From Nostoc sp. DedSLP01 (GTDB lineage: Bacteria > Cyanobacteriota > Cyanobacteriia > Cyanobacteriales > Nostocaceae): 64,000 nucleotides of DNA. This document shows, piece after piece, positions 10,510-55,043 of the stretch (position 1 is the stretch's first letter; each line of letters starts with the position of its first letter). The notes beneath the pieces are model-generated. The model did no database searches, was not told where the DNA came from, and saw nothing but the letters and a program-made list of their open reading frames with translations. The translations under genes and the position numbers were made by a program. The stretch lies in NCBI GenBank assembly GCA_034530875.2, contig JAVRCJ020000001.1:32001-96000 (forward strand), read 5' to 3'.

Positions 10510-11865
10510 ATGACATTAGAAACACAGACACTACAGGCTGGACTATCAAATTCTACCTTTGAGACACCTGAAAATAACCAAGAATTTAACTGGAGACAAT
10601 GTTGGTATCCTGTCTGTTTTCTGCAAGATCTGCCAGCAAATCGTCCTTATACTTTTTCGTTATATGAAGAACCTTTTGTTTTGTTCAAAGACCAAAATGG
10701 AAAGTTTGTCTGTTTAACAGATCGTTGTTCTCACCGTGCAGCTAGACTTTCTGATGGACAAATTATTGACGGTAAAATAGAGTGTTCGTATCACGGTTGG
10801 CAGTTTGGCAATAGTGGTCAATGTCTGCACATTCCTCAGTTACCAACTGATGCTAAAATTCCGGTGAATGCTTGCGTCCCATCCTTTAAAGTCGTGGAAG
10901 TTCAAGATATTATTTGGATGTGGGCAGGGGAAGCCCAAACGGCTGTTGATGAGCTAATTCCATCTTTACCAGATTGGGAAAAACCGGAATGCTTCAAGTT
11001 AGATTATCTACGCGACCTACCTTACGACCAAACCTATTTTATTGAAAACATTATCGATCCGGCTCACGTTCCTATCAGTCATGATGGCGTCATGGGAAGC
11101 CGTAAAGATGCCCAAGCGTTGGAAATAGAAGTTATTGAAAGTAACATTCATGGAATTAAGGGAAGGTGGCGGCGAACGCGCACAGCCAATTCACCTTGGA
11201 TTTCATTAGATTTCATTGCTCCTAATTTGATTCTCTACAAATTTGGTAACGAACAGCAAGGTAGGGTTGGAGGCACAGCCTTATATTCCATTCCATTAGG
11301 TAAGGACAGATGCCGGATTTTAATCAGAAATTATGGTAACTTTTTTACCCAAAAAACCAAGCTGATGCCTCCCTGGGTAGATCATATTTTGATGCAAAAC
11401 AAAATTTTAGAAGGTGATTTGCAATTAGTTGTCGAACAAAAGGCACAAATTGAGCGTTTGGGAAAAAGCCTCAAAGAAGTATATTTGCCGCTGAAAACTT
11501 CCGATCCATTAACGATCGAATATCGCAAGTGGCTAGATAAATTTGGGTCGGGTTTACCATTTTATCAAGGTTATTCTACCTCCAAAAATATTGGTAGTAG
11601 CGAGAGCGATCGCAAGTTGATGACCTTAGATCGATTTTCGCAACATACACTTATTTGTCATTCCTGCAATCGAGCTTATCAGGCGACAGATAGACTCAAA
11701 CAAAGTTTCATCGGGGTAGCGATCGCTTTCGCAGCTGTAGCGATACTTACAGATAATTCTGGAATCAAAATAGCAACAATATCGCTTTCTCTAGCAGCAG
11801 TTGCAATGTCGGCTATCGCCCGCAAATTCAAAAGTTTCTTTGAGCGTTCCTACACTCGTAACTAA
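10510..11865 (+). CDS. PaO/Tic55-family Rieske non-heme iron oxygenase, copy 1
   Basis: Rieske CSH...CSYHGW; mononuclear Fe site ENIIDPAHVPISH; C-terminal HTLICHSC and TM helices. Confidence 0.9.
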   Translation: MTLETQTLQAGLSNSTFETPENNQEFNWRQCWYPVCFLQDLPANRPYTFSLYEEPFVLFKDQNGKFVCLTDRCSHRAARLSDGQIIDGKIECSYHGWQFGNSGQCLHIPQLPTDAKIPVNACVPSFKVVEVQDIIWMWAGEAQTAVDELIPSLPDWEKPECFKLDYLRDLPYDQTYFIENIIDPAHVPISHDGVMGSRKDAQALEIEVIESNIHGIKGRWRRTRTANSPWISLDFIAPNLILYKFGNEQQGRVGGTALYSIPLGKDRCRILIRNYGNFFTQKTKLMPPWVDHILMQNKILEGDLQLVVEQKAQIERLGKSLKEVYLPLKTSDPLTIEYRKWLDKFGSGLPFYQGYSTSKNIGSSESDRKLMTLDRFSQHTLICHSCNRAYQATDRLKQSFIGVAIAFAAVAILTDNSGIKIATISLSLAAVAMSAIARKFKSFFERSYTRN

Positions 11866-12063: not shown

Positions 12064-13428
12064 ATGTCATTAAAAACAGAGATACTACAGGCTACACCAC
12101 CAACTTCTGCCTTTGAGACACCTGAGGAGAAGCAAGAATTTAACTGGAGGCAATGTTGGTATCCCGTTACCTTTGTGCAAGACTTGCCTACTAACCGCCC
12201 TCATAGCTTTTCCCTGTACGATGAACCTTTGGTTTTGTTCAAAGACCAAAATGGACAGCTTGTCTGTTTATCAGATCGTTGTCCTCACCGTACAGCCAAA
12301 CTTTCTGATGGACAAATTATTGAAGGCAAAATTGAGTGCTTATATCACGGTTGGCAGTTTGGCAGTGATGGCCAATGCCTGCATATTCCCCAATTACCAA
12401 CAGATGCAAAAATCCCAGCTAATGCTTGCGTGCCATCCTTTAAGGTTGTACAACGCCAAGGCATGATTTGGGTGTGGGCTGGCGAAAAAGAAACTGCTAT
12501 TGATGCAAATATCCCAATTCTGCCAGATTTAGATAAGTCTGGATTCGTTTGTGCAGATTTTATATTGGATCTGCCTTACGACCAAACATATCTAGTAGAG
12601 AACGTCATCGATCCTGCTCATGTTGCTATTAGCCATCATGGTACGAGGGGTGGTGGCAATCGCAAAAATGCCCAACCGCTAGAAATGGAAGTGTTAGAGA
12701 GTTCGGTTCGGGGAATTCGAGGCCGGTGGCGGGGAATTAATAAATCAAATGAAGCCTGGAAGTATGTTGATTTTGTCGCTCCAAATCTTCTTCTCAACAA
12801 TGCTTATATTGAAGAACGAGGTTGGACATTTGGACTAGCTTTGTATTCGATTCCTTTAGGCAAAGGGCGATGTCGTCTTTTAGCTAGAGGTTATCGTAAT
12901 TTTATGACTTGGGGAGTCAAGCTAAGACCCCGGTGGCTCGACCACTTAAATACAAATAAAATATTGGAGCAAGATTTACCTCTTCTAATGGGACAACAAG
13001 CAGAAATTGAACGCTTGGGAACAAGTCTCAAAGAACTATATTTGCCGCTGAAAACATCTGACACATTAGCGATCGAGTACCGCAAGTGGCTAGATAAGTT
13101 TGGGTCATCTTTGCCTTTTTATCAAGGTTATTCTACATCTAAAAATGTTCAGAATGACGAGTTGAATTCAAAGCCAATTTTGCTAGACAGATTTTCGCGA
13201 CACACGCTTATTTGTCCTTCCTGCAATCGAGCTTACCAGGTGACAAACAGACTCAAACAAAGTTTTATCGGAATAGCGATCGCTTTTGCAGCTGTAGCGA
13301 TACTTGCAGATGATTCTAGAATCAAAATAGCAACAATATCGCTTTCTCTAGCAGCAGTTGTAATGTCAGCTATAGCCGGCAAATTCAAAACTCACTTTGA
13401 GCGTTCCTACACACGCCACAATCATTAG
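12064..13428 (+). CDS. PaO/Tic55-family Rieske non-heme iron oxygenase, copy 2
   Basis: CPH...CLYHGW; ENVIDPAHVAISH; HTLICPSC; tandem paralog of 10510-11865. Confidence 0.9.
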   Translation: MSLKTEILQATPPTSAFETPEEKQEFNWRQCWYPVTFVQDLPTNRPHSFSLYDEPLVLFKDQNGQLVCLSDRCPHRTAKLSDGQIIEGKIECLYHGWQFGSDGQCLHIPQLPTDAKIPANACVPSFKVVQRQGMIWVWAGEKETAIDANIPILPDLDKSGFVCADFILDLPYDQTYLVENVIDPAHVAISHHGTRGGGNRKNAQPLEMEVLESSVRGIRGRWRGINKSNEAWKYVDFVAPNLLLNNAYIEERGWTFGLALYSIPLGKGRCRLLARGYRNFMTWGVKLRPRWLDHLNTNKILEQDLPLLMGQQAEIERLGTSLKELYLPLKTSDTLAIEYRKWLDKFGSSLPFYQGYSTSKNVQNDELNSKPILLDRFSRHTLICPSCNRAYQVTNRLKQSFIGIAIAFAAVAILADDSRIKIATISLSLAAVVMSAIAGKFKTHFERSYTRHNH

Positions 13429-13708: not shown

Positions 13709-16700
13709 TTAAGTGTTTATTAAAGAAATACCAGCTTGAGAAACTAAAAGTTGTAATATTTCCAAGCGTGGATTTGTAAAAACTCCCACAGATAAGTCAT
13801 TTTCTAAATAAAGTAAGCCAATGAATTGCCCTTGATGAATTAAGGGACAACAATAGACAGATTTTGGTTGAGTTTTGAGAATATAAGGATCGTTAATAAA
13901 AATGCCCTCAACTCTTGCATTATTTAAGACGATAGTTTTTTGCGTTCTCTCGACATAGTTAATCACTGAAATCGGCAATTCTGGTAGTGATTCTGCGATT
14001 GTAAGTGAAGATAACAAGCGTACCTCATGTTCCAGAGATGTTGATTTCGATGTTATTAGTTGGAGTTGATTGTTAATTGGAAAATCTTGGCGATCGCTAA
14101 CAGCTACTGGTTCTAATTGTCCAGCTTTTGACAATAATAGAACGCCTTTAGATGCACCAGCATACTCGACAGTAATAAGCATTAATTGAGCAAGCAATTT
14201 GTCAAAGCTCCTTTCAAATGCAATTGCTTGCAAAGCTTTGGCAATTGCGGCTACATCCAGCGCGGCTGTCTGTATTGTTGATTTAGCAGTAACTATTGTG
14301 TGGCTAATATCCCGGTTAATATTTTCTCGTTGCAAAATTCTGCAAAAGAATTCTGGATATCTTAATTCTAAATCTTTGACTTTTGCTTTTGCTCCCCAGC
14401 GAATATAGGCATAGTAAGACTTAATTAAATAAACTTCAGCTAGAGCCTCTTGATTGCTAGCAAAATAAAACTCAGCTACTAACTCATTGGCTAAAGCTTC
14501 TTCCTGAATATAACCAGATTTAGCAGCTGCTTCAATGGCTTCTTTGTAATGAGCGATCGCTTGCGTATGATTTCCTAAAACTCGTGCTTTTTCAGCTTCA
14601 ACTAATTCATATTTGTGCCGATAATTTTCTGGAGCTTGTTCTGCCCAATTGCGCATTTTTTGCTGATTAATTTCCACCTTTTGTAAAAGCTGATTTTTAG
14701 CTTTTGCATTCTGCTGCTTTGGATAACTAGCTAACAACGCCAAAGAATAATAAAAATTGTGTGCTGCTAAGGTTATAAATCCCAGAATATTTGCCGTATA
14801 TCTTTGTGCCAATTCTGCCTTTTCTACAGATTGGTCGTACTCTTTAAACAAATACAGCAGCATTGCTTTATAGAAGTAAGTCATAAACAATGAAGTCATG
14901 ACATTTGCCGCCTCAAAAACTGGCAGCATTTCTTGTTCATTAAAGCTATCGCCAATTAAACGGCAGGGATTGGCTGATTCACCTAATAAATTAGCTTCCG
15001 TTTGTCTGACCGTACTAATTGAATGAATGGCATATTCTTGTTTCAGCTTCCGCATTAAATCAATATAGGGTTTTTGGCAAGCATTAACATTATCTAAATG
15101 CTCTCCCAGTAAAAATGTGTAGTGACAATAATTAATACTGCTGTAACCTGCATATTCTATATCGCCTGCTTCTAAACTCATTTGCAGAGCGTCTACAAAA
15201 GCTGGAATTGTTTCTCTAGCATGTTCTTTCCAATGGCGAACAAAAGCATTAAATATATTCACAACTTTGCATTTTAGTTCTGAATTTTCAAAACGCTCTA
15301 GCAGCTTCATCGCTAGCTGTCCAAATTCATATCCGGACTTAATATCTCCAAACGCACCACATAGCAGCCAGCCATAAAGAGCATATCCATAAGCAGCCTG
15401 GGGCGAATTTCCATATCGCACACTCAGATTAACCATCTTAAATGTGACGAGGGGGAATAAATTAGGAGTTGTTAGATAAGCAGGAATAAGGACACTAATT
15501 AAAATCCGCATTGCCGCGATTTTATAAGGATCTGTCATCTCTGGCAACTGGGCTAAATTATCAATTCCCTTAGCTGCGACAACTATTTTAGTTACAAGCG
15601 AACTACTGTTAACTGCACATTTACTAGGTGCTTTCGGCAGAGAAATTCCCAGAATTTTTAATGCCTCTAAAGCGGTATCTATCGCCTCTAACATTTGGTT
15701 TTGAGCGACATAGACTTGAATTTTTGTCTCGTAGACCTTAATTTTTTCTAGAGGTTTTTTAGCTTTAGCTAAAACAATATTTGATAGTTGTTCGGCTCGC
15801 TCATAATTGGTGTTGAGGTACTCAGCTTCTACCATTGTGGTATAAAGATTAAGTGCTAGCTCGTAATTACTAGACCAAGCTGTTTTAGGAAGCAGTCCTA
15901 AACCAATATTTAAATACTTAACAGCGGCTTCATAAGCTGTTGCTTGCTTAGCTTTAGAACCAGCAATTAAATTTAACGAGGCTAGATGTTCTTTGTCTGT
16001 TGGTTGAGTTATTAATTCCAGCCCGATATTAAGCTGGTTGACAATATCAAAGATATTTTCTTCTAGGGCTGAATCAGGTGTCTTATGCAATAACAAGCGG
16101 CCGATACTTAAGTGTGTCTTTTGTTTGTCGTCATCGGGAATTAGAGAATATGCTGCTTGCTGCACGCGATCGTGGAGAAATTTGTAAGCAATTTTGACAT
16201 TATCTACTTGGCAATGCTCCTGTTCCGATCTTTCTACAAACATAGGAATTTTGTATGCTTGGGAGAGTGGCAAAATTAAGCCAGCTTGCAACGCTTCCCA
16301 CAGGGCATTAGCAGTCTCTTGTAATGATTTCTTATAAACAACTGCTAGATTTTCTAAAGTAAATTCATGCCCCATACAAGCCCCTAATTTTAAAACTTGC
16401 TGGGTTGCGTCTGGTAGTTTTTGGAGGTTTCTGGCTACCAATTCGACGACGCTATAATCTGTAATCCCTAGCGCTTGAATTTGCAGAATTTCCCACTGCC
16501 ATTGTTTAAGACTAAAGTTAAAATGCAACAAACCTTCAGCATAAAGTGTTTGCAGCATTTGAGTCAGGAAAAAGGGATTGCCCTGGGTTTTGTTATAAAT
16601 TAATTCAGCTAAATTTCTTACCTTTTCTCGATTGTTTTCTTGTACGTAAAAGCTTTGGGGCGTTAGAGTTTTATTGAAGGTATCGTTAATTAATTCACAA

Positions 16701-18286
16701 ATATTGTCAAAGTTTAATGGCTGAAGCACGATGTTATGCACTACATCTTTACGGGAGTAAATTCTTTCAATTGTAACGATCGTGGGATGAGTTGGGCTGA
16801 CTTCATTATCTCGATACGCACCTATCAACAATAAATATTTACTATCTTTATTGCAGATGACGTTCTCAATTAATTTTAGCGATGGAGCATCTGCCCACTG
16901 TAAATCATCTAAAAATAAAACAAGTGGATGTTCTACCTTAGCGAAAACATCGAAGAATTGTTGAAAAACTCGATCTAAGCGATTTTGAAATTCGGTAGCT
17001 CCGAGTTCAGGTATAGGCGGTTGAGAGCCAATAATGTGTTCTACTTCTGGAATTACGTCAATAATTACTTGAGCGTTTGCACCTAAAGCTGTTAAAAGAT
17101 TTTGTTTCCAAGTGGCAATTTTTTCGGGGCTTTGTGTTAGTATCTGCTGAATTAAAGCTTGAAAAGCTTGAATTAAGGCTGCATAAGGAATATTTTTCTT
17201 AAATTGGTCAAACTTACCAGAAATAAAATATCCACGTTGTTGCAGAATGGGTTTGTGGATTTCATTAATGACACTGGTTTTACCAATTCCAGAGTACCCA
17301 GAAACCAGCATCATTTCTGTAGTACCAGCGCTGACTCGCTCAAATGCTTGTAGTAGCGATCGCACTTCTCGAGTTCGTCCGTAAAGTTTTTGGGGAATCA
17401 AAAATTGGCCGGATCGATCTAAATCTCCTAAAGCAAATTCGGTGATTTCACCTTGAGATTGCAACTGATATAAGCAAGTTTCTAAATCTGCTTTTAAACC
17501 CAGAGCATTTTGATATCTATCCTCAGCAGTTTTCGCCATTAACTTCAACACAATATCTGACACCGCTTTCGGTATTTCTGGGCTAACTTCGTGCGGTAGT
17601 CTGGGATTTTTGGCTATATGACAGTGTACTAATTCCAAAGGATCGATTGTTGTAAAGGGTAACTGACCCGTCAACATTTCATAGAAAGTAACACCAAGAG
17701 AATAAAAATCTGTGCGGTAGTCAACAGACCGATTCATTCTTGCGGTTTGCTCTGGGGAAATATAAGCCAGGGTTCCTTCTAACTTTTCAGGATTGTTAAT
17801 ACAAGGATTTTCTTTAGAAAGTCGAGAAGCAATACTGAAATCAATTAATTTGACTGTCAAGCTATCGGGATCTAAAAGGATATTTTGGGGGTTTATATCT
17901 TTATGAATAATGTGGTTTTTATGTACGTTATGTAAGATTTCAGCTAACTGAATAGCAAGCGGAAGAAACGACAAAACTGGCAATTTCCCTAAAGTCAATA
18001 ATTTTTGAAAAGATATACCCCAAAAATCTTCTAAAATTATTGCCGAACTGTGGCCGTAATGCTCCAAACTCTTTACTTTTGCTATTCCTTTGATATCCGC
18101 TAAAACCTCAAGAATTGTATATTCATGGCGCAGCCTTGTAATCTCTTCTAAGGTTGGATATTCAGCGTTTATAGTTTTGATAATAACTGTAGAGAAGTCT
18201 GACTCTCGCCGAGCACGATAAATAGCGGTATCTATACCCTCATGCAAGCATTCGTTGAGTAAGTAACCAGGTAGGTTGACAACCAT
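13709..18286 (-). CDS. Ser/Thr kinase - AAA ATPase - GAF protein (HstK-type architecture without His-kinase module)
   Basis: IIHKDINPQN, KLIDF, GTLAYISPEQ; P-loop GYSGIGKT; LDDLQWAD; C-terminal GAF ending VSQAGISLINT*. Confidence 0.92.
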   Translation of the reverse strand: MVVNLPGYLLNECLHEGIDTAIYRARRESDFSTVIIKTINAEYPTLEEITRLRHEYTILEVLADIKGIAKVKSLEHYGHSSAIILEDFWGISFQKLLTLGKLPVLSFLPLAIQLAEILHNVHKNHIIHKDINPQNILLDPDSLTVKLIDFSIASRLSKENPCINNPEKLEGTLAYISPEQTARMNRSVDYRTDFYSLGVTFYEMLTGQLPFTTIDPLELVHCHIAKNPRLPHEVSPEIPKAVSDIVLKLMAKTAEDRYQNALGLKADLETCLYQLQSQGEITEFALGDLDRSGQFLIPQKLYGRTREVRSLLQAFERVSAGTTEMMLVSGYSGIGKTSVINEIHKPILQQRGYFISGKFDQFKKNIPYAALIQAFQALIQQILTQSPEKIATWKQNLLTALGANAQVIIDVIPEVEHIIGSQPPIPELGATEFQNRLDRVFQQFFDVFAKVEHPLVLFLDDLQWADAPSLKLIENVICNKDSKYLLLIGAYRDNEVSPTHPTIVTIERIYSRKDVVHNIVLQPLNFDNICELINDTFNKTLTPQSFYVQENNREKVRNLAELIYNKTQGNPFFLTQMLQTLYAEGLLHFNFSLKQWQWEILQIQALGITDYSVVELVARNLQKLPDATQQVLKLGACMGHEFTLENLAVVYKKSLQETANALWEALQAGLILPLSQAYKIPMFVERSEQEHCQVDNVKIAYKFLHDRVQQAAYSLIPDDDKQKTHLSIGRLLLHKTPDSALEENIFDIVNQLNIGLELITQPTDKEHLASLNLIAGSKAKQATAYEAAVKYLNIGLGLLPKTAWSSNYELALNLYTTMVEAEYLNTNYERAEQLSNIVLAKAKKPLEKIKVYETKIQVYVAQNQMLEAIDTALEALKILGISLPKAPSKCAVNSSSLVTKIVVAAKGIDNLAQLPEMTDPYKIAAMRILISVLIPAYLTTPNLFPLVTFKMVNLSVRYGNSPQAAYGYALYGWLLCGAFGDIKSGYEFGQLAMKLLERFENSELKCKVVNIFNAFVRHWKEHARETIPAFVDALQMSLEAGDIEYAGYSSINYCHYTFLLGEHLDNVNACQKPYIDLMRKLKQEYAIHSISTVRQTEANLLGESANPCRLIGDSFNEQEMLPVFEAANVMTSLFMTYFYKAMLLYLFKEYDQSVEKAELAQRYTANILGFITLAAHNFYYSLALLASYPKQQNAKAKNQLLQKVEINQQKMRNWAEQAPENYRHKYELVEAEKARVLGNHTQAIAHYKEAIEAAAKSGYIQEEALANELVAEFYFASNQEALAEVYLIKSYYAYIRWGAKAKVKDLELRYPEFFCRILQRENINRDISHTIVTAKSTIQTAALDVAAIAKALQAIAFERSFDKLLAQLMLITVEYAGASKGVLLLSKAGQLEPVAVSDRQDFPINNQLQLITSKSTSLEHEVRLLSSLTIAESLPELPISVINYVERTQKTIVLNNARVEGIFINDPYILKTQPKSVYCCPLIHQGQFIGLLYLENDLSVGVFTNPRLEILQLLVSQAGISLINT

Positions 18287-18769
18287 TTTTCTATTAAGTT
18301 TCTATTATTATTCGTAATTTTATTTGCCAATTGTGAGTATTTGATGAAGATGAAATATTCAGTAACAAAAGTTTATGCGTATGCGATCGCTAAAAAGCTT
18401 TATCTGCTGTGCATACTATTGTTTTATCGCTAGAACACTGATTCTATATGCACTGTTGGGGTATGGGCTGCTCAGCATTATGGGTAAAATTTTTGGCAAT
18501 GATTAAGAATCTGAAGCACACCTTTGTTAAGTAATTTTTAAGTAATATTTATTACTAAATATGTAATGAAACAAGTATAGAACCAACAGTGGGCATATCC
18601 TAAAAATTACAGCTAATACCAATTAAAAATGGCGTTGTTTGATGGATGCGGAGAATGGTAAATTATACTCATTACCTGTTTGCTCTCCAGTTTCAACCTG
18701 ACGATAAAAACTAAAAGCAGCTACAAAGTTCGTAATTGCAACTCTTACGAATAGAAAATGGCATAACTT

Positions 18770-19641: not shown

Positions 19642-21132
19642 TCACAACAATTCAAAATATTCTCTTTGCTCCCAGCTAGTTACTTGCTTTAAATACTCTT
19701 CTGGTGGTATCTCGCCAACTGACTGCAAAAAGCGATTAATTTCGCTCTCTTTCATCTTGACAATAAAGTTTATGAACTGCTGCCCCAGTTTTTGAGTAAA
19801 AAGTTCGCTTTCGCTCAAATATGAAATTGCCTCTGGCAAACTTTTGGGCAAGGTGGGATTTTCTGTATTGTAAGGTTCCTCTGTTGGCGAACCAGGATCG
19901 AGTTTATTATCTACACCATCTAAACCAGAAATTAATTGCGATGCCATGTAGAGATAGGGATTGGCTGCTGGTTCTCCAATTCGGTTTTCGATGTGGGTAG
20001 TGGGGTCATCAAAACCGCCTTGCAATCTAATCATTGCGCCGCGGTTTTCTAATCCCCAGCCTGCACGGTCGGGGGCTAGGGAATAAGGTCTAAATCTTTT
20101 GTAGCCGTTAATTGTCGGGGCTGCGAACACAGAAGCAGCATTGGCATGTTTGAGAAGGCCGCCAATAAAGTGTTTGCCTAAATCCGACATCAAGGTTTGG
20201 GAGTTTGCAGACATGAAAGCGTTTTCGCCTGTGGTTTTGTCTACAAGGGATTGGTGCAAATGCCAACCATTAGAAGAACATCCTTGCAGTCCTGGGCGAC
20301 ACATAAATGATGCAATGTAACCTTGTTGACGGCAGATTTGCTTGGTTGCCATGCGGAATATCATCATTGTATCCGCAGCTTGCAATGCCGGAATTGGCTC
20401 GAAGGTAAATTCAAATTGACCGGCGCCGCCTTCGCTTTCTACACTCCTTAAAGGCAATTCCATTTCAACTAAGTTTTCTGCTAGGAGACGCAGTAAATCA
20501 TGAATCTCTGGATTGGGAGATTCTAAAAGGTATTGGTAATTATGCTCTACGGCGCTGACTTTGGCAGGTTCGCTGGGTTTACCAGAAGTACCAACATTAG
20601 CGATCGCTAACATCGGATCTTCTAATTTTGCCAGATACCACTCGACTTCTAAGCCGACAATATGCTCTAACCCTCTTTGATGTAACTCTCGCAATGCTTG
20701 GCGCAAAATCCCGCGACTGGAAAACGGCATTGGCTGACCATTTTGAAAGTACTCATCGCAGAGAATAAACCCAGTGCGTTTTGCCCAAGGCACAATTTTA
20801 AAGGTATGAGGATCGGGAATAGCGACGAGATTTGGCGCACCTGTCATCAAAGGCATGTCTAAGCTACCGCCGGGAACGAAAGGATTAAATACGATCGCCC
20901 CACCAGTATCAAACAAAAATGTCCCCGTGCTGATTTGCATACCGTTTTCCAAGGCGCCCAAAAACGCTTGCGGTAACAGCGACTTACTGCGAAGAATGCC
21001 ATGCTGGTCTGTCCAAGCAGTACGAATCAATAATAGATCCTGCTCTTTAATAACAGCCTTAATCTTTTGTGCTGCTTCTTTTTGGATGTCTGTCCACAGA
21101 TGATGGCGATCGATAAATCCGGGTCTTTTCAT
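19642..21132 (-). CDS. Glutamine-synthetase-like gamma-glutamyl ligase, AtdA1/TdnQ-like
   Basis: GS fold motifs GLEVEWY, GWHLHQS, RPYSLAPDR, ENRIGEPAANPYLY; N-terminal FI..H.LWTD.Q..AA and C-terminal VT.WE.REYFELL as recalled for AtdA1/TdnQ. Confidence 0.88.
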   Translation of the reverse strand: MKRPGFIDRHHLWTDIQKEAAQKIKAVIKEQDLLLIRTAWTDQHGILRSKSLLPQAFLGALENGMQISTGTFLFDTGGAIVFNPFVPGGSLDMPLMTGAPNLVAIPDPHTFKIVPWAKRTGFILCDEYFQNGQPMPFSSRGILRQALRELHQRGLEHIVGLEVEWYLAKLEDPMLAIANVGTSGKPSEPAKVSAVEHNYQYLLESPNPEIHDLLRLLAENLVEMELPLRSVESEGGAGQFEFTFEPIPALQAADTMMIFRMATKQICRQQGYIASFMCRPGLQGCSSNGWHLHQSLVDKTTGENAFMSANSQTLMSDLGKHFIGGLLKHANAASVFAAPTINGYKRFRPYSLAPDRAGWGLENRGAMIRLQGGFDDPTTHIENRIGEPAANPYLYMASQLISGLDGVDNKLDPGSPTEEPYNTENPTLPKSLPEAISYLSESELFTQKLGQQFINFIVKMKESEINRFLQSVGEIPPEEYLKQVTSWEQREYFELL

Positions 21133-21141
21133 TTGGCTTAC

Positions 21142-22479
21142 CTAATCACGTTCAAGAGATTGTGCGCTTAGTTTCAAATCAGCTTTCATCAGGCGTTTCC
21201 ATTCTTGGTGATAACCGCGAATTGCTAACTCATCTGTTACAGGCCCGCTGATGACACCATCTTCATCTACCTGATGGCGATCGCTAATCCCAAACCCGCG
21301 ATTCGTTGCCACCCACTCGATTTCTGGAATACTTAACCCCCGATGACATTCGGCAAAATTCATCATATCGTCAGGAATCCCAAAACTGGGAAAATCTTCT
21401 TGGCTTCTCATCCGCAAAACGTTAACTTCATCGGGTACGCCAGAGATGGTAGTCGCATAGATTGTTAATTGAGTGCGATCGACAGCTAGCGGTTCAATTA
21501 CTTCAATTTGATTGCCAAAAATCAGCAGATTAGGGAAAATACTTAAATTCATCTGCGAACCAATAGATAAATCTAACCAGTAAGGCGCGCGATCGCCCCA
21601 TTGTTCTCTAATCTTTGCTTCATAAGCTTCCCGTCCCGGCTGCGGTCGTTGTTGTTGCCAGAAAGCGCCGTCTCGTTTTTCGTAACTGGGGCGCTGGTCG
21701 AGGAACGTATGCCCATGACCGAGGTACTGTACGTACATCGGCCCCTCATCAGGATTGTGGGCAAAATATTGCATATCTTTGTCAGGTTCTAAACGATTGG
21801 CCACAGCCAGCAGAGAACGGTGTGAAAAGGCGACATGATAACCATCAGCGGCATTATCGTAGGTAAATTTCCAGTTACCTTGATAAATCATTTTATGGGC
21901 GCTGCTTCCGACGGTAATTTGAGCATTAGGAAAACGGTCAATCCACTGGTCTAATAAATCCTTGGCTCGTCCGAGATAAGTTATTAAATCTGGTGCTTCA
22001 TAATTCAAAGTCCCAAAGATAAAACCGCGATAGCTTTCTACTCTGGGAACTTGTCCCAAGTCGAATTCTGGGCGCTGCAAGTTAGCAGCGTAAGCCTTTG
22101 CCCAAGGAACTCCTGTGAGTTTGCCCGTGTTGCTATAAGTCCAGCCATGATAAGGACAGGTAAAAGTTTTGGCACAACCACGAGGTTCGCGGCAAACCGT
22201 TGCACCTCTATGGGTGCAGCGATTGAATAAGGCGCGAATTTTATTTTGGCGATCGCGCACGATAATAATTGGACGATGCCCTAAATTAGATGTCTTAAAA
22301 TCGTTGGGGTTGGGTATTTCGCTTTCATGAGCCAGGTAAACCCACGTTCCCCCAAAAATCCGAATCATTTCTTCTTGGAAAATTCTCGCATCCGTATAAA
22401 CACAACGGTGGACTCGTTCTGGTTGAATTAGATAATCCCAATCATAGTCTTGCCTAATTTCGCCGTTTCTATGCAGCAT
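21142..22479 (-). CDS. Aromatic ring-hydroxylating dioxygenase alpha subunit, AtdA3/TdnA1-like
   Basis: Rieske NRCTHRG...CPYHGW; DNAADGYHVAFSH; subfamily motifs QQRPQPGRE.YE, MNL.IFPNLL..GNQI, RMR.QEDFP, PEIEW. Confidence 0.9.
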   Translation of the reverse strand: MLHRNGEIRQDYDWDYLIQPERVHRCVYTDARIFQEEMIRIFGGTWVYLAHESEIPNPNDFKTSNLGHRPIIIVRDRQNKIRALFNRCTHRGATVCREPRGCAKTFTCPYHGWTYSNTGKLTGVPWAKAYAANLQRPEFDLGQVPRVESYRGFIFGTLNYEAPDLITYLGRAKDLLDQWIDRFPNAQITVGSSAHKMIYQGNWKFTYDNAADGYHVAFSHRSLLAVANRLEPDKDMQYFAHNPDEGPMYVQYLGHGHTFLDQRPSYEKRDGAFWQQQRPQPGREAYEAKIREQWGDRAPYWLDLSIGSQMNLSIFPNLLIFGNQIEVIEPLAVDRTQLTIYATTISGVPDEVNVLRMRSQEDFPSFGIPDDMMNFAECHRGLSIPEIEWVATNRGFGISDRHQVDEDGVISGPVTDELAIRGYHQEWKRLMKADLKLSAQSLERD

Positions 22480-22659
22480 GGTTAGCTTTTCTCAAAATAA
22501 ATTTGATGAATAATTGATGTAATATTGCTAACTTTAAGCTAATACCTGTCTCAATTACACATTTTTTCCCCATTTCTAACTTCACCGAATATATTTCTTG
22601 AGAGACTACAGCCTTAACGGTGAATCGGGTGAAAAGAGAGTAATTTTGTCAAAGTCTCA

Positions 22660-23256
22660 CTATAGTAAGAAACTGAGATTTTGATGACCTCGATCTGCAT
22701 CAATTAAATTCACTTGCTTGAGAGCTATTTTCCATTTGCCATCCTGCTGCTGCAACCTATGTCCGTACCAACCGGCATAGGTTTGCATCCGTCCTTGGCG
22801 AAATTCATGAATGAGGAAGTTAGAACGAATGTTAACTTCTTCTTCCTTGGCACTAGAAAATATTTCAATGTTACTGATGATTCGGCTAGTACGCGATCGC
22901 GGTGTTTGAGCATAAGCAAAACCACACTGCAACCAAAATACTTTATCTTCCAAGCGTCTGCGATCATCGAAAGCGATGGATACTTGTTTTCTTGGATCTT
23001 TGCCATCTAGGTTACTAGGAATCCAATAAAGACATTTACTAGTAAATAATGCCAACCAATCATCAAATTTTCCATCATCGAGTAAGCGTGCTTCCTGAAA
23101 CAGCAATGCTTGGCACTCTCGCTCAATGGCTGTAGCGACTGGCTTTCCAAGATTCTCCCACTCTGGAAGTCGATTAATTAATTCACTATAAAATTGTTCG
23201 TCGATGTAATAGGAATATCGCGAACTTTCGGTGTTTTCTTCTTTATTAACTGACAC
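22660..23256 (-). CDS. Aromatic ring-hydroxylating dioxygenase beta subunit, AtdA4/TdnA2-like
   Basis: EARLLD..FDDWL, YWIP, DDRRRLED, AYAQTP.SRTSR, GWYG; GTG start. Confidence 0.9.
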   Translation of the reverse strand: MSVNKEENTESSRYSYYIDEQFYSELINRLPEWENLGKPVATAIERECQALLFQEARLLDDGKFDDWLALFTSKCLYWIPSNLDGKDPRKQVSIAFDDRRRLEDKVFWLQCGFAYAQTPRSRTSRIISNIEIFSSAKEEEVNIRSNFLIHEFRQGRMQTYAGWYGHRLQQQDGKWKIALKQVNLIDADRGHQNLSFLL

Positions 23257-23329
23257 AATTTACTTCTTTAAGTTCTGCGGTTTGATTTGCATTTGCAAGA
23301 CCAATTCTTGAGCTTGCACCAATAATCAT

Positions 23330-23455
23330 TAGACCTGCCTTAAAAATAGGGACTGGGGAAGAGATATTTTTATTGTTCCTTGTGAGTTCCACTAATGGAG
23401 TCTCTTGCAAAACTCTTTTTGCAACAGAGGGCAAAGGGAAAGAATTTTTTCTTAT
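23330..23455. mobile_element. Partial MITE related to 47706-47948
   Basis: TAGACCTGCCTTAAAAATAGGG...ATTGTTCCTTGTGAG...ATGGAGTCTCTTGCAAAA...GGGGCAAAGGGAAA matches 47706-47875. Confidence 0.7.
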
Positions 23456-23460
23456 CTCTT

Positions 23461-23697
23461 CCAGGATATTAGATGGCGGACAAGTCTAAGGAAAAAATGC
23501 GCTCTTAGCTGGCACAACTGGCTCAATTAGCTGGAATTAAGCAAGCCAAAGAACTCAGTGCTGCATTATTGATGTTGGTTGATGGAGTGTTTGCACAGCG
23601 CAGATTGTTCAACACGCATAACAATGGAGTCAGGTTAGCAAAAGCCGCAGCAATGATGATTGAGGCGTATTTGACCAAGCTAGATGAAGCTGATTAA
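23461..23697 (+). pseudogene. C-terminal remnant of a TetR/AcrR-family regulator
   Basis: Frame reads PGY*MADKSKEKMRS*LAQLAQLAGIKQAKELSAALLMLVDGVFAQRRLF...AAAMMIEAYL; two in-frame TAG stops; N-terminal HTH absent. Confidence 0.6.
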
Positions 23698-24045
23698 TTT
23701 ATTCTTTGGAAGTCCTTGTGTAAAAATCGATAACAGCAGAGAATCCTGGGTCAGCGGCGCAAAACCCAGGCGAGACAATTATATATTTGAGTATTTGGTG
23801 AGTAGTTGCTTGATTTATGATAATATATTGCCTATTCTCCTTCTAATTGAGTTAAAAAGTTACAGCAGAGAATTTGCATTTCCCTGGTGCAGCGTTCTCT
23901 GCTTATATTACTGTTTTAATTTAGCGATAAATCGGGGAAAAATAGGGGAGAAAATTTAAATTTGAGAAAAAACTGCTCTAAGTCAGTCGCCGAGAAAAAT
24001 TCAATTGGATAAAATACGCCGATTGGTAACGATTTTACAGCTGTG

Positions 24046-24237
24046 CATTGGTGTCAATTTAACATGAAAGTCTGATGAAAACGTGATGAGCGAGTTCTAC
24101 CCACTTACCATCAAGATCCCCATCACCCCACCCCAGTTTTGCTGACGCAAAACCTCCCCTCCCCTTAGCAAGGGGAGGGGTTGGGGGTGGGGTAAAACGC
24201 CTATGGGATAAGCGTTTGAGTTTAAGTTGACCCAATG
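24046..24237 (-). mobile_element. MITE with CATTGGTGTCAA(C/T)TTAA TIRs, inserted in a REP hairpin
   Basis: Ends CATTGGTGTCAATTTAA / TTAAGTTGACCCAATG; flanks ACAGCTGTG / ACAGCTGTA (9-bp TSD, 1 mismatch); inverted homolog at 37012-37199. Confidence 0.85.
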
Positions 24238-24692
24238 ACAGCTGTAAAGCCCCTACTGGGGATTATCGTTTAAATAGATGAAAAACGCTCTAAAAAATGC
24301 GATAGGTAAATAAGCATAAATCTTTGCGATAAGTGAGTCGATGTGAAAAAATCAAACTATCTTAAGAAAGATTAATCAAGGTAAAATTTTCTCCCCTATT
24401 GCCTACTGCCTTATCCTGACAATAAATATTCACGACGACCTACTTATATAGTTTGATTAATAGCCAAGTACTACAACAAAATGAAAATTACCAATTAATT
24501 AGATATAAGTTTAATTTCATGGAAAGATGCATTTGCTGAGTTTAAACTGAATATTTTACATCAGTAAATTAAAAATTATAGTTTATTAATCTAGAGGTAG
24601 ACCAAGTTTATCTCTAGAGGTCGATGAAAATCAGCTTTTTATATGTAGCAATAATAGTGTAAATGTATCTAGCAGTAATTTTTAATCAAGCT

Positions 24693-54548: not shown

Positions 54549-54665
54549 GAGGGAGTGGGGAGTGGGGAATGGGGAGTGAGTAACCGAGTGGGGAATGGGG
54601 AAGGGAGTGGGGAGTAGTTAATATTTAAATTCCCTACTCCCTACTCCCTATTCCCTACTCCCTAC
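54549..54665. repeat. Inverted STRR arrays (GGGGAGT / CCCTACT)
   Basis: G-rich heptamers followed by C-rich heptamers running into the 3' end of the four-helix-bundle gene. Confidence 0.8.
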
Positions 54666-55043
54666 TTCTTTATTATCTAAAGAACGAATCAAAGCGCGGA
54701 GTAGTCTTCCTACAGATTCACATTGCATCAAAATTGGACTGACTACTTGACTATCTGTAAGTCTCACGTTGGCTCTAGCCGATAGTAATAAGTGAGTTTC
54801 TAACTCTTTCAGAGAACCTTGTGCAATTCGGAGATATTTGATATATTCTGGGCGATACTCTCGCCCATAACCCTCAGCAATATTTGCTGGGATTGATGCA
54901 GCTGCTCGACGAATCTGTGAAGTCATTCCGTAAAGTTCCTCTTTCGGAAATGCAATCGTGAGTTGATAGCAAGCTTCGGCTAAATTCATACCTTCTTGCC
55001 AAACTTTCAAATCTTTATAAGAGCGAATTTTAGAATCTGTCAT
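54648..55043 (-). CDS. Four-helix bundle protein (23S rRNA IVS / bAvd-like family)
   Basis: SYKDLKVWQ, FPKEELYG.TSQIRRAA.SIPANIAEG, YL.IA.GSL.E.ETHL. Confidence 0.93.
   Translation of the reverse strand: MTDSKIRSYKDLKVWQEGMNLAEACYQLTIAFPKEELYGMTSQIRRAAASIPANIAEGYGREYRPEYIKYLRIAQGSLKELETHLLLSARANVRLTDSQVVSPILMQCESVGRLLRALIRSLDNKEVGSRE

Follow-up and report, generated by a model that had tools for sequence, protein, structure and literature searches.

Aniline-type dioxygenases have been studied as plasmid-borne degraders of pollutants, assembled from five or six components. Two such systems, NpaA1A2A3A4A5 of Pseudomonas sp. JS3066 and its 90%-identical relative AtdA1-A5 of Acinetobacter sp. 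YAA, lie on an IncP plasmid and encode, in this order, a ligase resembling glutamine synthetase (GS), an amidotransferase-like protein (A2), the alpha and beta subunits of a Rieske dioxygenase, and a reductase (A5), accompanied by a regulator. According to the available text of the Npa study, NpaA1 makes a gamma-glutamyl amine that NpaA3A4A5 oxidize, the oxygenase takes the glutamylated amine and not the free one, the reductase is counted essential, and the amidotransferase-like NpaA2 is dispensable (PMC11335346). Here, we analyze a three-gene relative of these systems on a chromosomal contig of a phototroph, within a 64,000-nucleotide (nt) stretch (the window) of contig C1 in the 8.57-Mb assembly of Nostoc sp. 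DedSLP01. The three genes belong, in reduced form, to the family of GS-coupled arylamine (aniline-type) dioxygenases, with an amine as the predicted substrate. We consider it probable that they form a reduced two-step arylamine module that is now an accessory trait in decay, and whose ligase is kept for a benefit of its own.

The module consists of three co-oriented open reading frames (ORFs) on the minus strand, arranged beta-alpha-GS in the ORF listing of the window. The small (beta) subunit of the Rieske ring-hydroxylating oxygenase (22660..23256; 198 amino acids (aa), GTG start) matches PF00866 (Ring_hydroxyl_B, 2e-32). The large, catalytic alpha subunit (21142..22479; 445 aa) matches PF00355 and PF00848 (Rieske, 2.4e-20; Ring_hydroxyl_A, 8.3e-15), and the predicted GS-like gamma-glutamyl organic-amide (arylamide) synthetase, hereafter the ligase (19642..21132; 496 aa), matches PF00120 (Gln-synt_C, 1.7e-78). 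On the same strand, a 180-nt spacer that varies among strains separates beta from alpha (22480..22659), and only 9 nt separate alpha from the ligase (21133..21141), where the junction reads stop TAG, gtaagccaa, ATG. These coordinates are exactly those given in a first-pass annotation of the window, and the rearranged gene order it described is real, in contrast to the GS-GAT-alpha-beta-reductase order of the Npa and Atd clusters.

Features expected of the family can be read in the translations. The alpha subunit carries a Rieske motif, CXH-X17-CXXH (CTH...X17...CPYH), and an iron-ligand motif with its His pair, DGYHVAFSH, both of which align with NpaA3; the carboxylate ligand is placed by alignment only. 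The first-pass annotation had also named several subfamily motifs of the proteobacterial proteins. All are present, and those of alpha and the ligase are common to the Npa proteins: alpha has QQRPQPGREAYE where NpaA3 has QQRPQPGRESYE, as well as RMRSQEDFP versus RMRTQEDFP, and the C-terminal end of the ligase reads WEQREYFELL versus WEQKEYFNLL in NpaA1. The beta motif is shared only in part, as DDRRRL corresponds to HDIRRL in NpaA4.

Searches against solved structures returned 8wwu as the top match of the ligase (E 1.9e-140, 472 bits), with the next structure at 2e-48. This entry is NpaA1, described in the available text as a gamma-glutamylating enzyme of Pseudomonas sp. JS3066 acting on 1-naphthylamine and aniline (PMC11335346). 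Using npa genes taken from plasmid pJS3066, we obtained full-length BLASTP alignments for all three proteins, at 44% identity between the ligase and NpaA1 (216/492, E 9e-157), 45% between alpha and NpaA3 (190/418, E 2e-131), and 38% between beta and NpaA4 (70/185, E 3e-42). No NCBIfam equivalog was reached by beta, alpha, or the ligase, and all matches fell far under the curated cut-offs. For alpha, these were BenA (268 vs 781 bits), AntA (195 vs 672), and HcaE (194 vs 830); for beta, BenB (83 vs 226); and for the ligase, type III GS (231 vs 470), GlnA (221.5 vs 429), and GGputSyn (220 vs 650).

To place the proteins more precisely, we compared them with other clusters. A tblastn search of plasmids with alpha (60 of 556 records listed, picked at even steps down the ranking) gave as the closest proteobacterial alphas among the matches listed those of Delftia acidovorans pNB8c (49%) and Sphingobium sp. 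YBL2 (48%), whose ligases are 47% and 44% identical to that of the window; benA-type and other oxygenases reached at most 37% among the matches listed. At these two loci, GS, amidotransferase, alpha, beta, and a ferredoxin-NADP reductase (FNR)-type reductase follow in order with a regulator beside them, whereas the Nostoc locus has no amidotransferase, reductase, or regulator. The five-gene set of Delftia acidovorans pNB8c is DcaQTA1A2B, and that of Sphingobium sp. YBL2 is homologous to it. The cluster on Rhodococcus gordoniae pDND3A is more similar than the proteobacterial systems are (identities of 59% for alpha, 47% for beta, and 45% for the ligase), and an alpha of Rhodococcus aetherivorans is 64% identical. 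The Rhodococcus clusters differ in having a 2Fe-2S ferredoxin, an FAD reductase, one or two amidotransferase-like genes, and catA, none of which is linked to the module in Nostoc. The nearest named non-cyanobacterial relatives are from Bacillaceae (ligase ~55%, alpha 62-65%). The nearest named non-cyanobacterial ligases and alphas often share Bacillaceae or actinobacterial genomes (e.g., Peribacillus and Alteribacillus), which suggests that the two genes travel together.

Phylogenies agree with membership in this family. In quick IQ-TREE searches with Shimodaira-Hasegawa-like approximate likelihood ratio test (SH-aLRT) support, the arylamine-type sequences of the ligase tree (60 rows) formed a single 58-row clade, separated by 3.3 changes per column from the two other GS paralogues of the genome (support 98). 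At its base stand the proteobacterial references together with two sequences from Rhodococcus. The window ligase falls in a cyanobacterial-type clade of 14 rows (98), whose sister is a group of five rows that includes Niallia oryzisoli and Bacillus sp. V3B (98). In the alpha tree (52 rows), 51 family members stand opposite BenA across a branch of more than 3 changes per column. The window alpha belongs to a 10-row cyanobacterial-type clade (support 94), and the proteobacterial references, including the pNB8c and YBL2 alphas, form a clade of their own (100) that does not include it. These positions place the proteins in the GS-coupled aniline-dioxygenase family and outside the proteobacterial Atd/Tdn/Npa subclade; the Atd/Tdn-like identity proposed at first therefore stands at the level of the family and not of the subclade.

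The occurrence of such genes in cyanobacteria, for which the first-pass annotation cited no characterized example, is already in print. A preprint on SktABCDEF, a six-component system of Rhodococcus ruber R1 that has aniline-to-catechol activity and resembles the pDND3A cluster, reports in its available text alpha homologues in Cyanobacteriota, with no electron-transport genes near the homologues in Bacillota and Cyanobacteriota (bioRxiv 10.1101/2024.12.29.630347). Our literature search turned up no second account of such a system in cyanobacteria. The Nostoc module is an uncharacterized reduced variant of a known system.

Nor is the minimal form special to a phototroph, as had been supposed. 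A metagenome scan with alpha kept 80 loci and found no close cyanobacterial ones, its matches being relatives at 30-64% identity; we examined 44 (L089-L132), with alphas 28-64% identical to that of the window. Genes adjoining alpha in these 44 include the ligase (31 loci), beta (34), an amidotransferase (11), and a DcaB-type reductase (6), a census whose queries could miss divergent electron carriers. Ten loci had full 8-kb flanks, and five of them, like the Nostoc module, contain only the three genes GS, alpha, and beta; two have the full proteobacterial set, two an amidotransferase with alpha, beta, and GS, and one beta-alpha only. GS-alpha-beta triads with neither amidotransferase nor reductase, all uncharacterized, are thus common on contigs from soil and marine metagenomes, and similar sets may occur in Bacillaceae genomes. 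Their order is GS-alpha-beta or alpha-beta-GS; the beta-alpha-GS order of Nostoc was seen in none of the 44 loci. Pfam searches of 22 neighboring ORFs at the metagenome loci yielded no clue to the substrate.

The amine pocket of the ligase was examined by mapping its residues onto NpaA1 numbering. The N-terminal loop (the "15th motif"), whose role is described in the available text of PMC11335346 together with the part that F75, F86, and W235/W81 play at the bottleneck of the amine tunnel, is present in the window ligase and in Npa/Atd, and absent from the two other GS paralogues of the genome. Equivalents of F75 and F86 are kept (F74 and F85), as are E232 and E234. Position 201, Val in NpaA1, is Tyr, which is also found at the equivalent Y205 of AtdA1 and in the pNB8c and YBL2 ligases. 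W235 of NpaA1 is replaced by Gly, a residue shared by all Nostocales sequences shown (three deeper cyanobacterial-type sequences have Trp), and the position of M81, Trp in AtdA1, is occupied by Ile (I80). In NpaA1, W235A is inactive and W235L has little effect, according to the same text (PMC11335346). The Gly at 235 and the lack of Trp at 81 indicate that the amine tunnel differs from those of NpaA1 and AtdA1, and aniline itself may not be the substrate. The tunnel is predicted to stay hydrophobic and aromatic with a different bottleneck, such that an aromatic or other hydrophobic amine is the likely substrate, with aniline not assured.

Partner genes are missing both from the locus and, in close form, from the genome, in line with what the first-pass annotation reported for the window. 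Pfam searches of the remaining window ORFs of 120 aa or longer (32 in all) found no amidotransferase, no ring-cleavage dioxygenase, and neither an FNR-type reductase nor a LysR regulator. Queried by tblastn with Npa, Dca, Ado, and Rhodococcus partner proteins, the whole genome gave only weak partial matches to the reference amidotransferases (27-34%), and held no close homologue either of these or of the ferredoxin/reductase pair. An unlinked Peptidase_C26 gene (C1:260041-260775) and a gene for an FHA-FNR-Fer2 fusion (C50) both lie in unrelated contexts. We also considered an unlinked intradiol dioxygenase-like gene (C23) as a dedicated partner and rejected it, as its context is unrelated and such genes occur in 31 of 127 Nostoc genomes, including only 6 of the 15 with a triad.

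Based on these comparisons, the module most likely works, and would glutamylate and then dioxygenate its substrate using host electron donors. In the first step, the ligase would spend ATP to link glutamate, through its gamma-carboxyl, to a primary amine that is hydrophobic and probably aromatic, a prediction based on its 44% identity to NpaA1 and on the conserved pocket features. In the second, alpha and beta would dihydroxylate the gamma-glutamyl arylamide at the nitrogen-bearing carbon, giving a catechol-type product while the nitrogen leaves on the glutamyl carrier; the 45-59% identity of alpha to the alphas of aniline dioxygenases and the tight linkage of the genes argue for this step. 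Since no dedicated reductase or ferredoxin is encoded, we infer that electrons must come from host proteins. The amidotransferase-like hydrolase is missing as well, a component that the Npa system can do without.

We next surveyed the distribution of the module, with a threshold of E <=1e-80 for ligase orthologues. Such a gene is present in 6 of 401 cyanobacterial genomes sampled evenly, all of them Nostoc, and in none of the other 154 genera sampled. On public contigs, the ligase also occurs in Dendronalium, Stigonema, Brasilonema, Aetokthonos, and Scytonema and, judged by protein names, in Nodularia chucula and a marine cyanobacterial metagenome-assembled genome (MAG); one marine cyanobacterial contig carries both the ligase and alpha. 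Among 127 Nostoc species genomes, 61 have the ligase, 15 of these with alpha (triad type) and 46 without it, and 66 have no match. Full-length ligase matches without stops account for 53 of the 61; the rest are partial or contain stops, some at contig ends. The survey of cyanobacterial genomes that the first-pass annotation proposed thus locates alpha in a minority of Nostoc genomes, each time adjoining the ligase: in 15 of 15, the two genes share a contig, with 11-12 nt from the end of alpha to the start of the ligase. Beta, alpha, and the ligase are all found at 14 of 57 public Nostocales loci. The genes may also reside on plasmids, as in the closed genome of Nostoc sp. UHCC 0926, with alpha and the ligase on the 1.04-Mb plasmid pn1 (L074, NZ_CP117772.1), and in Nostoc sp. 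HK-01, with the ligase alone on a 485-kb plasmid. Outside the cyanobacteria, we observed a 49%-identical GS-like gene with no Rieske oxygenase in Prescottella equi p1-WH99 (L071), where the neighbors are two amidases, an AmiS/UreI transporter, an amidotransferase, and an acetate-CoA ligase, an example of this ligase family put to another use.

Traces of the oxygenase genes remain at loci that have only the ligase. When the window region was compared with the 57 loci by nucleotide BLAST, in which alignment ends are approximate, many ligase-only loci proved to keep the 3' end of alpha, stopping at ~21205, 21210, 21222, 21237, 21243, 21284, 21299-21304, or 21350. Eight loci (L030, L041, L044, L045, L047, L050, L059, and L068) retain a 46- to 63-nt piece of beta (22900 to 22838/22855) that abuts the ligase start or lies within ~10 nt of it, and tblastn detected an alpha remnant in L023. 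Moreover, the same flanking genes are found with the triad (L024, L025, L034, L035, L039, and L064) and without beta and alpha (L020, L036, and L040). The pieces in ligase-only loci and the shared flanks indicate that the triad is the older state and that beta and alpha were deleted several times. The beta-alpha spacer is itself variable: homology to other triad loci breaks between ~22652 and 22567, and in a Nostoc MAG (L016) the two genes are split by an insertion of about 1.8-1.9 kb that carries additional ORFs (L016:6757-8562).

We then asked how selection has acted on the remaining genes, using medians of pairwise Nei-Gojobori estimates of omega, the ratio of nonsynonymous to synonymous rates (dN/dS). 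Omega is 0.10 for alpha in 13 triad loci and the window (91 pairs, dS ~0.30) and 0.13 for the ligase in 14 triad loci and the window (105 pairs). For the ligases of eight GS-only loci that are syntenic with one another upstream (six of them show a beta remnant), omega is 0.19 (28 pairs, dS 0.11), and for three further syntenic ligase-only loci it is 0.12 (three pairs). The ligase is clearly constrained by purifying selection after loss of the oxygenase, which argues that glutamylation alone has value. Repeated oxygenase loss with ligase retention is a new, testable point. We propose that heterocyst-forming cyanobacteria have had the triad for a long time, that it probably came from Gram-positive bacteria, and that it would now be accessory and decaying, most Nostoc lineages having lost the oxygenase genes independently of one another. 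Detoxification or masking of a reactive amine would be the simplest benefit of the ligase alone, with the oxygenase as an optional second step retained by this strain.

Several observations weigh against this reading. The reductase is the sole component essential in the Npa system that has no counterpart here: the Rhodococcus-type ferredoxin and reductase had no tblastn match in the genome at E 1e-5, and the DcaB-type query recovered a single full-length FNR-Fer2 relative, 28% identical, fused to an FHA domain, and located among signaling genes. No catechol-cleavage gene is linked to the triad. In the ligase, neither bottleneck Trp is found (235 is Gly and NpaA1 position 81 is Ile). Promoter-like signals (9 vs 9.4 expected) and terminator-like signals (5 vs 4.6 expected) are at chance level. 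A search of sequencing runs listed no RNA run for the stretch, and a single run, coded as DNA, contained 0.27 of its words. Finally, the trees come from quick searches, have SH-aLRT as their sole measure of support, and lack resolution at the base of the alpha tree, and the pairs underlying the dN/dS medians are not independent.

The rationale offered in the first-pass annotation was nitrogen scavenging, by which arylamine nitrogen would pass into glutamine and the GS/glutamate synthase (GS-GOGAT) cycle, powered by photosynthetic ferredoxin. The chemistry of the family agrees with this in that nitrogen is left on the glutamyl carrier (Atd/Npa; available text of PMC11335346), and the lack of a ring-cleavage gene beside the triad fits a use of the nitrogen and not of the carbon. 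However, we found no NtcA-type site (GTAN8TAC) between beta and the next gene, in a search for the exact consensus that did not extend to imperfect sites; the consensus occurs 11 times in the window versus 9.5 expected, and the copies nearest to the triad are at 18542 and 26118. In addition, the genus Nostoc fixes N2, so that traces of nitrogen from arylamines are worth less to the host. The ligase alone frees no nitrogen, yet 46 of the 61 ligase-bearing Nostoc genomes have no alpha, deletion scars mark such loci, and the ligase is still constrained there. Both the missing NtcA consensus and a ligase that often persists where the oxygenase is gone speak against nitrogen scavenging as the principal function, and we now regard it as unlikely.

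The region upstream of beta offers few other landmarks. Its neighbors differ in every triad locus, and nucleotide homology between strains begins only 13 nt before the beta start. Stop-to-stop frames in 23257-24662, inspected for a regulator, a ferredoxin, or a small ORF upstream of beta, contain nothing Cys-rich. A 62-codon frame divergent from beta (23509-23697, plus strand) resembles by eye the C-terminal fragment of a TetR-type regulator and is closely preceded by a stop; the upstream regions of beta in the other triad loci do not conserve it. A G+C-rich palindromic stretch at 24130-24210 (ccccacccccaacccctcccc ... ggggaggggagg ... ggggtgggg), which may be a repeat element, also lies upstream of beta, in a gene-poor gap of 1.4 kb.

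A biosynthetic role is suggested by the surroundings of the ligase in other strains. Directly after the ligase gene, 13 of the 57 Nostocales loci carry a microviridin-type set consisting of an Inhibitor_I10 precursor and two MvdD-type ATP-grasp ligases (examples are L020:11772-12050, L034:12236-13225, L024:12791-13765, and L024:7151-7735), in some cases with a GNAT acetyltransferase upstream; the set is not in this window. Halogenase or methyltransferase genes lie near the ligase in Brasilonema and Aetokthonos loci, and catabolic neighbors are absent. Thus, the ligase could glutamylate an endogenous amine and the oxygenase could hydroxylate the conjugate to yield a catechol-type secondary metabolite. 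Nevertheless, the neighbors are not conserved across contexts, no biosynthetic genes lie within reach in the window, and the nearest relatives of known function are catabolic; we therefore find such a role quite improbable.

Alternatively, the triad might be an inert relic, its oxygenase idle for want of a reductase of its own and the whole heading for loss. Such a fate would fit the absence of alpha from 112 of the 127 Nostoc genomes, the broken ligase copies with internal stops in several genomes, and the lack of partner genes in the tblastn search of the genome. Base composition is also in keeping with a foreign origin: the G+C content at third codon positions (GC3) is 0.42 for the ligase and 0.40 for alpha, above the 28 other window ORFs (mean 0.316, maximum 0.397), although we take this as a weak sign. 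An idle oxygenase is hard to reconcile with the low omega of alpha and its freedom from internal stops in 13 loci and the window, or with the conserved 11-12-nt junction between alpha and the ligase. Reductase-less triads are, moreover, common elsewhere, which suggests that generic electron donors suffice. On balance, we doubt strongly that the module is inert. That the module is instead two unrelated enzymes, an oxygenase for a free aromatic acid or hydrocarbon and a separate amine or ammonia assimilator that merely adjoins it, is very unlikely indeed, for although the best NCBIfam matches of alpha are benzoate, anthranilate, and phenylpropionate dioxygenases and those of the ligase are GS and gamma-glutamylputrescine synthetase, these scores lie far under the curated cut-offs, ligase and alpha share contigs in Bacillota, Actinomycetota, and metagenomes (adjacent in 31 of the 44 metagenome loci), and the Npa oxygenase refuses the free amine in the available text of PMC11335346.

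Other genes of the window are given here for orientation. Domains detected among the 32 other ORFs include CAAD, CHAT-TPR, DUF928, and PaO-type oxygenases, a content that marks the window as cyanobacterial. The last are a tandem pair of Rieske oxygenases (Rieske + PaO; 10510-11865 and 12064-13428, plus strand), 8-12 kb from the triad; a PaO-like gene is also found downstream of the ligase at a Stigonema locus (L028). Between this pair and the ligase, the minus strand encodes a 1525-aa protein with a Ser/Thr kinase domain, an AAA_16 ATPase domain, and a C-terminal GAF domain (13709-18286). On the far side of the module, a gene for a 23S rRNA intervening-sequence protein (54648-55043, minus strand) sits within a chemotaxis-like operon encoding CheA-like, methyl-accepting chemotaxis protein (MCP)-GAF, CheW, and response-regulator proteins.

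Returning to the reduced two-step module, we also entertain a bolder form of it, in which the ligase masks a natural aromatic amine met in soil or symbiosis and the oxygenase is an add-on that draws electrons directly from photosynthetic ferredoxin. We think this rather unlikely, but its consequences would be considerable. If it were true, triad strains would carry out light-driven deamination of arylamines to catechols and glutamine with no dedicated reductase, which would be a new way to power an alpha3beta3 Rieske dioxygenase, and the polymorphism among strains (triad, ligase only, or neither) would have ecological meaning.

A conserved triad in a phototroph and on environmental contigs suggests that glutamylate-then-dioxygenate chemistry occurs much more widely than one would judge from the pollutant degraders, and its core may run on generic electron donors. 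For genome annotation, the consequence is that the ligase should be kept out of tallies of glutamine synthetases. Nostoc itself presents a natural experiment, with 15 triad genomes, 46 ligase-only genomes, and 66 without a match among 127.

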